18,130 nt of DNA from a virus (taxonomy: Duplodnaviria; Heunggongvirae; Uroviricota; Caudoviricetes): the IMG/VR virus record IMGVR_UViG_2671180283_000002, positions 1-18,130 of that record; one strand, 5' to 3'. Shown in pieces: positions 16,150-16,724 of the stretch (positions are counted from its first letter, which is position 1; each line of letters starts with the position of its first letter). The notes under the pieces are model-generated. The model was not told the DNA's origin. It did not search any database and worked only from the letters and a program-made list of their open reading frames with translations. The translations under genes and the position numbers were made by a program.

Positions 16150-16620
16150 ATGACAAAATCATGGAGCGTACCTTTTCCTGAATCAGAAACTGAACATGAT
16201 GGAATGCCTGTTTTCTGGAGATTCCAGGCGACAGTTGAAGAAGATGGGATAAAAATATTCGCACTTCAATATATAGCTTTTCATCAGACAGAGCATTATG
16301 CATGGTTGGTTCCTGCGCATTGGATTGTTAATTTTAAACCAGCACCAAATCAGTGGTTACAGGAATGGAAACAAAGGAGAAATAGATATGCAATTAAGAA
16401 AGTAGCAAAAAATGCAGAAAGATCTTTTGCATTCCCAACGAAGAAACTTGCCATTGAGAGTTTATTGCACCGGAAGAAATACCATTTAATGAGAATCAAA
16501 CAAGATTTGGCTGTTGTATCAACTCTTGTTGATGGGATGAAGAATATTGATACATCAACACCAGATATTGAATATAACTTTGGACACAACCAAGAAACAG
16601 AAAACTGGGTGTTTTATTAG
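16150..16620 (+). CDS. Unknown 156-aa soluble protein in the early-left cargo slot between N and cIII
   Basis: ORF from track with SD GAGGTGAG before ATG 16150; no family recognised; occupies the region where lambda has ral/sieB/ea10. Confidence 0.65.
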   Translation: MTKSWSVPFPESETEHDGMPVFWRFQATVEEDGIKIFALQYIAFHQTEHYAWLVPAHWIVNFKPAPNQWLQEWKQRRNRYAIKKVAKNAERSFAFPTKKLAIESLLHRKKYHLMRIKQDLAVVSTLVDGMKNIDTSTPDIEYNFGHNQETENWVFY

Positions 16621-16724
16621 TACGAATAAGCACTGTGTATTCATTCCAACGAGTGAATACACGGAGCAATGTCGCTCGTAACCAAACAGGAGCCGACTTG
16701 TTCTGATTATTGGAAATCTTCTTT

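Follow-up and report, generated by a model that had tools for sequence, protein, structure and literature searches.

What fills the variable segment between the antiterminator gene N and cIII in the pL operon of a lambdoid phage, and to which neighbour does a stem-loop found there belong? The question is raised by a mosaic lambdoid prophage of which 18,130 nucleotides (nt) were analysed (referred to below as the window; IMG/VR record IMGVR_UViG_2671180283_000002), and whose closest overall matches, phage 2B8, Shiga toxin (Stx) phages and phage 434, each cover it in part. A sequence-only reading of the window had singled out an open reading frame (ORF) coding for a 156-amino-acid (aa) protein, with a hairpin behind its stop codon, and had viewed the hairpin as a possible processing or stability element of that gene. 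It had missed a terminator at 16725-16748, a stretch shared with phage lambda (16630-16752), and the small RNA (sRNA) PreS encoded there. On balance, we favour the view that two independent modules are joined at this locus: a stand-alone cargo gene, referred to as gp45 after its HK97 counterpart, and a module composed of the hairpin and PreS.

A blastn search with positions 16621-16752 revealed that positions 16630-16752 are 96.7% identical to lambda positions 33923-34045, in the ral-ea10 intergenic region. In lambda, this segment encodes LPR1, also called PreS, an Hfq-bound sRNA of ca. 88 nt that is processed to ca. 68 nt and ends at tL2a (bioRxiv 10.1101/2024.10.31.621285). Lambda PreS is produced in the lytic cycle; it activates the translation of dnaN, acts as a repressor of alaS, and promotes replication of the phage (Silverman et al., bioRxiv 10.1101/2024.10.31.621285). 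The cloning primer P810 and the deletion primer P969 of the same work place the lpr1 5' end at GAGCAAT, which corresponds to position 16664 of the window, and its seed deletion (P970/P971) and M1 mutation (P838/P839) fall at ca. 16699-16716 and at 16703-16705, respectively (bioRxiv 10.1101/2024.10.31.621285). The 5' end, the seed, and the M1 site are all identical in the window. The copy is in the sense orientation relative to pL, lies between the N-proximal cargo gene and cIII, and ends in a terminator whose stem (16725-16742) contains five G-C pairs and is followed by a T-run (16744-16748), ca. 60 nt beyond the hairpin. As judged by this identity, positions 16664-16748 are almost certainly a copy of PreS, which would be expected to bind Hfq, to be expressed in the lytic cycle, and to activate dnaN as its lambda counterpart does; the tL2a-type terminator would end the RNA and provide a U-tail for Hfq binding. 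Another candidate for the identity of this RNA, the enterohaemorrhagic E. coli prophage sRNA HnrS, was rejected, as it is located in late genes. Rfam 15 contains no family for either the hairpin or PreS.

The genes found in front of this module were compared across related loci. Among 122 loci, the ORF directly upstream of the hairpin was gp45-like in 22, ral in 31, UPF_BP1-gp94-like in five, and of some other kind in 49, with no ORF found in 13; the 49 others comprise at least 15 unrelated kinds, and two of them match ES18 gp53. In 135 loci for which 2.5 kb of upstream sequence was available, gp45 (21 loci) and ral (46 loci) never occurred together, and gp45 was combined with both N types. 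This makes the site in front of the hairpin a genuine slot for variable cargo; the fixed landmark of the slot is the hairpin-PreS module, and the gene preceding that module is freely swapped. In the window, gp45 lies between N and the lambda-shared module, where lambda has sieB-ral. The earlier assignment of the gene to a ral/sieB/ea10 slot thus holds for the sieB-ral position and its variable cargo, but not for ea10, which in lambda lies beyond PreS and which is not replaced here but simply absent.

Two observations bear on how cargo might be exchanged. A junction motif, (A/G)CGAATAAGCAC, is conserved before the hairpin, behind most non-lambda cargo genes, and the ends of several short cargo ORFs lie 32-34 nt ahead of PreS, a distance that would put their stop codon at the TAA of the motif; the motif may be a short homology used in cargo exchange. 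In a metagenomic phage (locus L007), near-identical translation-initiation copies, CGTGGACGCAGCAGA...AAGAGGTGAGTATG (5970-6003 and 6487-6521), flank the gp45 homologue, and look like the footprint of a cassette insertion via recombination between gene starts.

The gp45 ORF extends from the ATG at 16150 to the TAG at 16618-16620 and follows a good Shine-Dalgarno sequence, GAGGTGA, at 16140-16146, as had been read from the sequence. Between 16100 and 16700, the DNA matches HK97 gene 45, 933W L0079, and many Stx-converting phages at 99.0-99.2% identity, and the product is annotated as hypothetical in all of them. Of 5426 complete E. coli genomes, 263 contain the intact N-gp45-PreS stretch. Over its full length (residues 1-156 of 156, E 1.4e-111), the protein matches a family with function unknown, PHROG 1636. 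Homologues with 54-99% identity, found in Escherichia, Cronobacter, Pectobacterium, Brenneria, Rosenbergiella, and metagenomes, keep the N-terminus and have 39 invariant residues. Among them, the proportion of differing synonymous sites (pS) is 0.77-0.91, that is, saturated, versus 0.17-0.26 for nonsynonymous sites (pN); because of this disparity we conclude, from the substitution pattern, that the gene is under strong purifying selection. The status of gp45 as a real early accessory gene is hardly in doubt.

When 1.84 billion representatives were searched with a profile, 93 relatives emerged, mostly 135-155 aa long and 20-25% identical. They have two motifs in common, of which G-[IV]...ET belongs to the sheet and K..SRFAF.TK..A...L..RK..Q..HLK to the core of the protein modelled below. 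All were assigned to PHROGs 1636, 13631, and 25384, each of unknown function. Two sequences initially taken as multi-domain relatives, P0054 and P0071, were rejected as artefacts of low-complexity repeats and not fusions. Neither the single sequence nor profiles built from 22 and from 90 sequences returned a usable relative from Pfam, NCBIfam, PADLOC, or the PDB sequences, in line with the original remark that the protein has no recognisable motif; the sole match in PADLOC-DB 2.0 was to Cas1 at chance level (E 0.02, 12 bits). Homology to a characterised protein of unrelated function, which the sequence-only reading had named as evidence against an anti-defence or exclusion role, was not found in these searches. 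Neither did the characterised anti-restriction and anti-defence families in Pfam, NCBIfam, and PHROGs (Ral, Lar, ArdA, Ocr, KlcA, etc.) produce a match. In the sources checked for HK97 gp45, L0079, the accession numbers, and PHROG 1636, nothing relevant and no name or function was encountered, and the literature on lambdoid early-left operons that was examined does not treat the gene.

The surroundings of gp45 homologues vary. Those with 72% and 57% identity are located after N and before cIII, next to other N types, and the Pectobacterium homologue is the last gene before xis-int. The distant relatives, in phages and prophages of Vibrio, Pseudomonas, Marinobacterium, and Pseudomaricurvus, are always part of same-strand arrays of small early genes; these arrays are close to recombination genes, DNA methylases, Lar, or integrase, and no partner gene recurs in all of them.

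Structure prediction, which the sequence-only reading had proposed, was carried out with AlphaFold. A prediction made with 22 close homologues was unconvincing (predicted local distance difference test, pLDDT, 66), while one made with 90 diverse relatives (AF2) was confident, with a pLDDT of 95.7 and a predicted template modelling score (pTM) of 0.82. The model comprises three long antiparallel strands (19-30, 33-46, and 50-55) and one short strand, two short helices and one of 33 residues (98-130), and an ordered tail. No fold relative was found among solved structures; Foldseek comparison with viral models returned uncharacterised phage proteins only, among them proteins of Erwinia phage phiEa2809, Achromobacter phage phiAxp-3, and Delftia phage RG-2014, which we take to be virulent, and of Rhizobium, Cellulophaga, and Tenacibaculum phages. 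The layout is that of an acidic three-stranded beta-sheet domain (residues 1-62, net charge -5), a strongly basic helical core with the 33-residue helix (63-132, net charge +12, isoelectric point, pI, 10.7), and an acidic tail (-5); the median pI of the family is 8.9. The protein is soluble and has no cysteine, no membrane segment, and no catalytic motifs.

We tentatively propose that gp45 has a counter-defence or takeover function of the binding type. The protein would bind a macromolecule of the host or of a competitor, whether nucleic acid or a nucleic-acid-handling protein, and would act as a host-takeover or counter-defence factor, being neither an enzyme nor an exclusion protein expressed in the lysogen. 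Judged from its context, the putative anti-defence activity is plausible. A different view of the same features is that gp45 is a nucleic-acid-binding regulator of the phage's own transcription, replication, or recombination, with no relation to host defences. The basic core and the high family pI are what one would expect of such a protein, as are the long helix, which could dimerise, a weak resemblance to beta-sheet DNA-binding folds, and the location near N and recombination genes; but the gene is dispensable insofar as the slot is filled differently in many lambdoid phages, neither a partner nor a target site is conserved with it, its beta-domain is acidic, and the fold matches are not significant. 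We consider this explanation rather unlikely.

Improbable to a greater degree is a role as a prophage superinfection-exclusion or defence factor that shields the lysogen in the manner of sieB or rexAB. Lambda does have sieB in the corresponding region, and the lambdoid early-left region is a host of exclusion genes; gp45, however, follows N on the pL strand, and no promoter serving it alone was detected, so that the lysogen should repress it; it also has neither a PADLOC match nor a membrane segment. Since pL lies upstream of the gene and phages taken to be virulent (phiAxp-3, RG-2014, and phiEa2809) encode related folds, lysogen exclusion by the 156-aa protein is unlikely. The binding-type takeover or counter-defence function is our tentative reading.

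Elsewhere in the window, a 332-aa ORF (14213-15211) between cI and pL occupies the position of lambda rexAB, 933W stk, and HK97 gp48/49. It contains a hydrophobic stretch, VITVLGVALIWGGVVLF, is followed directly by a strong terminator (15219-15236), and matches phrog_6191 (unknown function) and nothing in Pfam, NCBIfam, or PADLOC. For the role of an exclusion or abortive-infection gene expressed in the lysogen, this ORF is a stronger candidate than gp45.

We now turn to the hairpin. The inverted repeat GTGTATTCA-N10-TGAATACAC is present at 16635-16662 and starts 14 nt after the gp45 stop codon; as the sequence-only reading had stated, no T-run lies directly behind it, the next letters being GGAGCAAUG. 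As RNA, the stem is lengthened to 12 base pairs (bp), one of them G.U and four of them G-C, and is closed by a CAAC loop. Perfect 9-bp inverted repeats are not rare by themselves (three in the window versus 1.1 +/- 1.3 in shuffled sequences). The local fold of -18.2 kcal/mol has a z-score of -6.6, and none of 1000 shuffles was as stable.

Two IMG/VR scans with the PreS 5' leader yielded 237 loci, in which the 34 nt before GAGCAAT fold as a hairpin of 11-12 bp. The stems have five unrelated sequences, namely the lambda/HK97 type, the ES18 type, TATAGCAGATT (for which a within-type compensatory variant, GCTGA/TCAGC, was observed), TAATGACCATT, and TTATCGACTTTC, and all types stop 1-2 nt short of the PreS 5' end. 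In an alignment of 13 representatives, chosen by the authors, 98.6% of the cells pair, and nine of the 12 pairs have changed on both sides. The covariation score was 0.829 versus 0.189 +/- 0.038 in shuffles, with none of 500 reaching it, and slid registers of the 13 rows gave at most 45% pairing. That the hairpin is a selected RNA structure is highly likely. Two stem positions are mostly G.U (in 8 and in 12 of the 13 rows), and the antisense fold is weaker, -13.1 versus -18.2 kcal/mol; thus, the selected structure is the RNA of the pL (+) strand.

PreS starts at 16664, two bases after the end of the hairpin at 16662, and homology with lambda begins five bases ahead of the hairpin. Reassortment was observed between the hairpin types and two PreS body sequence types. 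More distant gp45 homologues, in Cronobacter, Pectobacterium, and a metagenomic phage, have no hairpin; one of them is followed directly by a terminator and another by the next gene. Since the hairpin is kept behind ral and many cargo genes and is missing behind these homologues, we conclude that it belongs to the PreS module and not to the 156-aa gene. The view with which the analysis began, in which the hairpin serves the stability or processing of the gp45 mRNA 3' end in a gene-specific way, drew on its closeness to the stop codon and its high stability, and 3' stem-loops can block 3'-5' exonucleases. This view is largely refuted by the linkage, and we regard it as quite improbable: ral and at least 15 unrelated genes precede the same hairpin, lambda homology does not begin in the gene, and the position of the hairpin is fixed relative to the PreS 5' end and not to any stop codon.

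That the hairpin terminates the pL transcript, or is cleaved in it by RNase III, is very unlikely. It does have a perfect, stable stem, and lambda pL transcripts are processed by RNase III at other sites. An intrinsic terminator, however, combines a G+C-rich stem with a direct U-tract, whereas this stem is AU-rich and has no U-tract behind it, and the real terminator is located 60 nt downstream; the original doubt that the hairpin terminates transcription was well placed. RNase III substrates typically contain ca. 20 bp, or roughly two helical turns, of double-stranded RNA and are cleaved inside the stem, whereas this stem is shorter and the reported PreS 5' end is outside it. Finally, the notion that the inverted repeat acts as DNA (a protein-binding palindrome, a cruciform, or a recombination hotspot for cargo exchange) fits its location exactly at the mosaic junction beside the conserved motif CGAATAAGCAC, but is very unlikely, as only complementarity is kept in five unrelated stems when a sequence-specific site would keep its sequence, and as the mostly-G.U positions pair only in + strand RNA, the antisense fold being 5 kcal/mol weaker.

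For the hairpin as part of the PreS module, we give about an even chance to a role as boundary, insulator, or stabiliser. It would mark and insulate the PreS 5' boundary, either by stopping the mRNA of the variable upstream cargo from pairing with PreS or by capping the 3' end of that mRNA after PreS has been cut off, and may in this way make PreS biogenesis independent of the cargo upstream.

A consensus scan upstream of 16664 found no promoter-like site, and hence the PreS 5' end apparently arises by processing. A PreS promoter inside the hairpin was considered and rejected, there being no consensus match and no conservation of the stem sequence. The 5' junction does not appear to match the RNase E consensus. 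The first 20 nt of PreS (GAGCAATRTCGCTCGTAACY, 16664-16683) are the most invariant part of the module across all variants. If the processed end lies near 16684, a position deduced from band lengths, this leader would be absent from the dominant ca. 68-nt form; its invariance points to a signal for processing, or to a function that only the long form has. The body of PreS is of a lambda/E. coli type or a Salmonella type (loci L011, L012, L057, L068, and others). The two types have a common 5' leader and most of the seed in common (GUUCUGAUUA versus GUUCUGGUUA), while their terminators differ, and an internal stem shows compensatory changes between them (ACAGG...CUUGU versus ACGAG...CUCGU).

The features of the operon and its neighbourhood are collected in Table 1. 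A probable pL promoter, located by a consensus match, would drive N, gp45, and PreS. A terminator scan from pL to 16725 detected no strong terminator-like site, the one at 16725-16748 being the first downstream of pL; for this reason, gp45 is probably co-transcribed with N, in the N-independent immediate-early transcript.

Table 1. Coordinates of features of the pL operon, which is read on the + strand, and of neighbouring genes in the window.
Feature	Position	Strand	Basis or remark
cro	near 13155-13360	-	
cI	13420-14142		
332-aa ORF, TTG start	14213-15211		followed by terminator 15219-15236
pL promoter, probable; TTGACT-17-TACTAT	15431-15459	+	consensus scan; between cI-side terminator (15219-15236) and N
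Antiterminator N, phage 21/HK97/933W type	15708-16091	+	PF25694 N_peptide, E 2e-15; phrog_271; HK97 annotation
Shine-Dalgarno sequence GAGGTGA of the 156-aa gene	16140-16146	+	sequence reading
156-aa early gene, HK97 gp45 / 933W L0079 family (PHROG 1636)	16150-16620	+	DNA identity; phrog_1636 match
Junction motif CGAATAAGCACT, before the hairpin in most loci	16623-16634	+	lambda homology begins at 16630
Hairpin, 12-bp stem (16635-16646 with 16651-16662), CAAC loop	16635-16662	+	fold; covariation
PreS (LPR1) sRNA homologue, ca. 85 nt (lambda ca. 88 nt)	16664-16748	+	lambda identity; preprint primers P810/P969
PreS 5' leader GAGCAATGTCGCTCGTAACC, nearly invariant	16664-16683	+	alignments
PreS seed, identical to lambda; M1 triplet CTG at 16703-16705	16699-16716	+	primers P970/P971 and P838/P839; lambda alignment
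Intrinsic terminator, lambda tL2a equivalent; GCCCTC-CAGTGT-GAGGGC and T-run	16725-16748	+	terminator scan; HK97 'putative terminator'
cIII thermoregulator	16798-16856	+	Rfam RF01804, 88.5 bits
cIII gene	16811-16975		followed by kil and gam

In E. coli E110019 (locus L005, NZ_CP035751), the N-gp45-PreS stretch is 100% identical to that of the window, and the annotation pipeline PGAP records N only as a fragment, a 69-bp pseudogene ('regulator, incomplete', 16324-16392), which looks like an artefact of annotating N of this type. Two further ORFs were observed in the nin region of the window. A 617-aa ORF (6981-8834) runs on the strand opposite to the nin and Q genes around it and matches phrog_9230 (unknown function) and nothing in Pfam or PADLOC; opposite-strand inserts in this region are typical of morons or defence cargo. 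An HNH endonuclease ORF (5915-6562) that weakly matches an AP2 domain overlaps the beginning of ninG (5338-6000); it is probably a homing-type endonuclease.

The widest reading of these results combines both modules: gp45 would be a new-fold, broad-host-range counter-defence or takeover family (PHROGs 1636, 13631, and 25384), with fold relatives in temperate phages and in the three presumed virulent ones, and would be made very early together with N in HK97- and Stx-type phages; the hairpin would be a plug-and-play RNA insulator that lets cargo be swapped upstream of PreS while sRNA biogenesis goes on undisturbed. Taken as a whole, we consider it doubtful. The locus nevertheless merits attention in its parts. 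Carried by HK97 and many Stx phages, gp45 probably belongs to the earliest proteins produced upon infection or induction, and its confident fold, unlike any solved structure, makes it a well-defined target for anti-defence and host-takeover screens. The non-coding tail at this locus is now read as a copy of a functional phage sRNA that reprograms host DNA replication, and the covarying stem-loop offers a direct handle on the release of PreS from the pL transcript.

In comparison with known systems, the protein is a catalogued 'hypothetical', and the RNA is the already known sRNA PreS with one conserved feature that is apparently undescribed. The gp45 gene is the same gene as HK97 gp45, 933W L0079, and the 'hypothetical protein' of Stx phages, with no material difference. 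Small beta-sheet folds that bind nucleic acids or proteins (AP2, Tudor, PWWP, and PipX) are listed among the closest known to the protein, and superposition of AP2, Tudor, and PWWP-like folds on the model was not significant. Lambda Ral occupies the same slot directly upstream of the hairpin-PreS module, is likewise a stand-alone early gene, and is mutually exclusive with gp45 in the 135 loci; as Ral and Lar have no sequence, profile, or size similarity to the 156-aa protein (66 aa versus 156 aa), the likeness is positional only.

CpxQ and SroC are Hfq-dependent sRNAs derived from 3' untranslated regions and cut from longer mRNAs. PreS resembles this class in sharing its terminator with the upstream operon transcript, in having a 5' end that apparently arises by processing, and in having shorter processed forms; a covarying, stable stem-loop that abuts the sRNA 5' end is, to our knowledge, not a described feature of the class. 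The preprint on PreS mentions no hairpin, stem-loop, or covariation at the 5' flank (bioRxiv 10.1101/2024.10.31.621285), and the covarying stem-loop at this boundary has apparently not been described so far. Compared with lambda PreS, the window copy has C for T at 16682 in the 5' leader and a shorter U-run (CTTTTTA versus GATTTTTT in lambda); its upstream neighbour is gp45 instead of ral, and ea10 is missing, so that cIII is directly next. The terminator stem is common to both copies, as is their position ahead of cIII in the pL operon.
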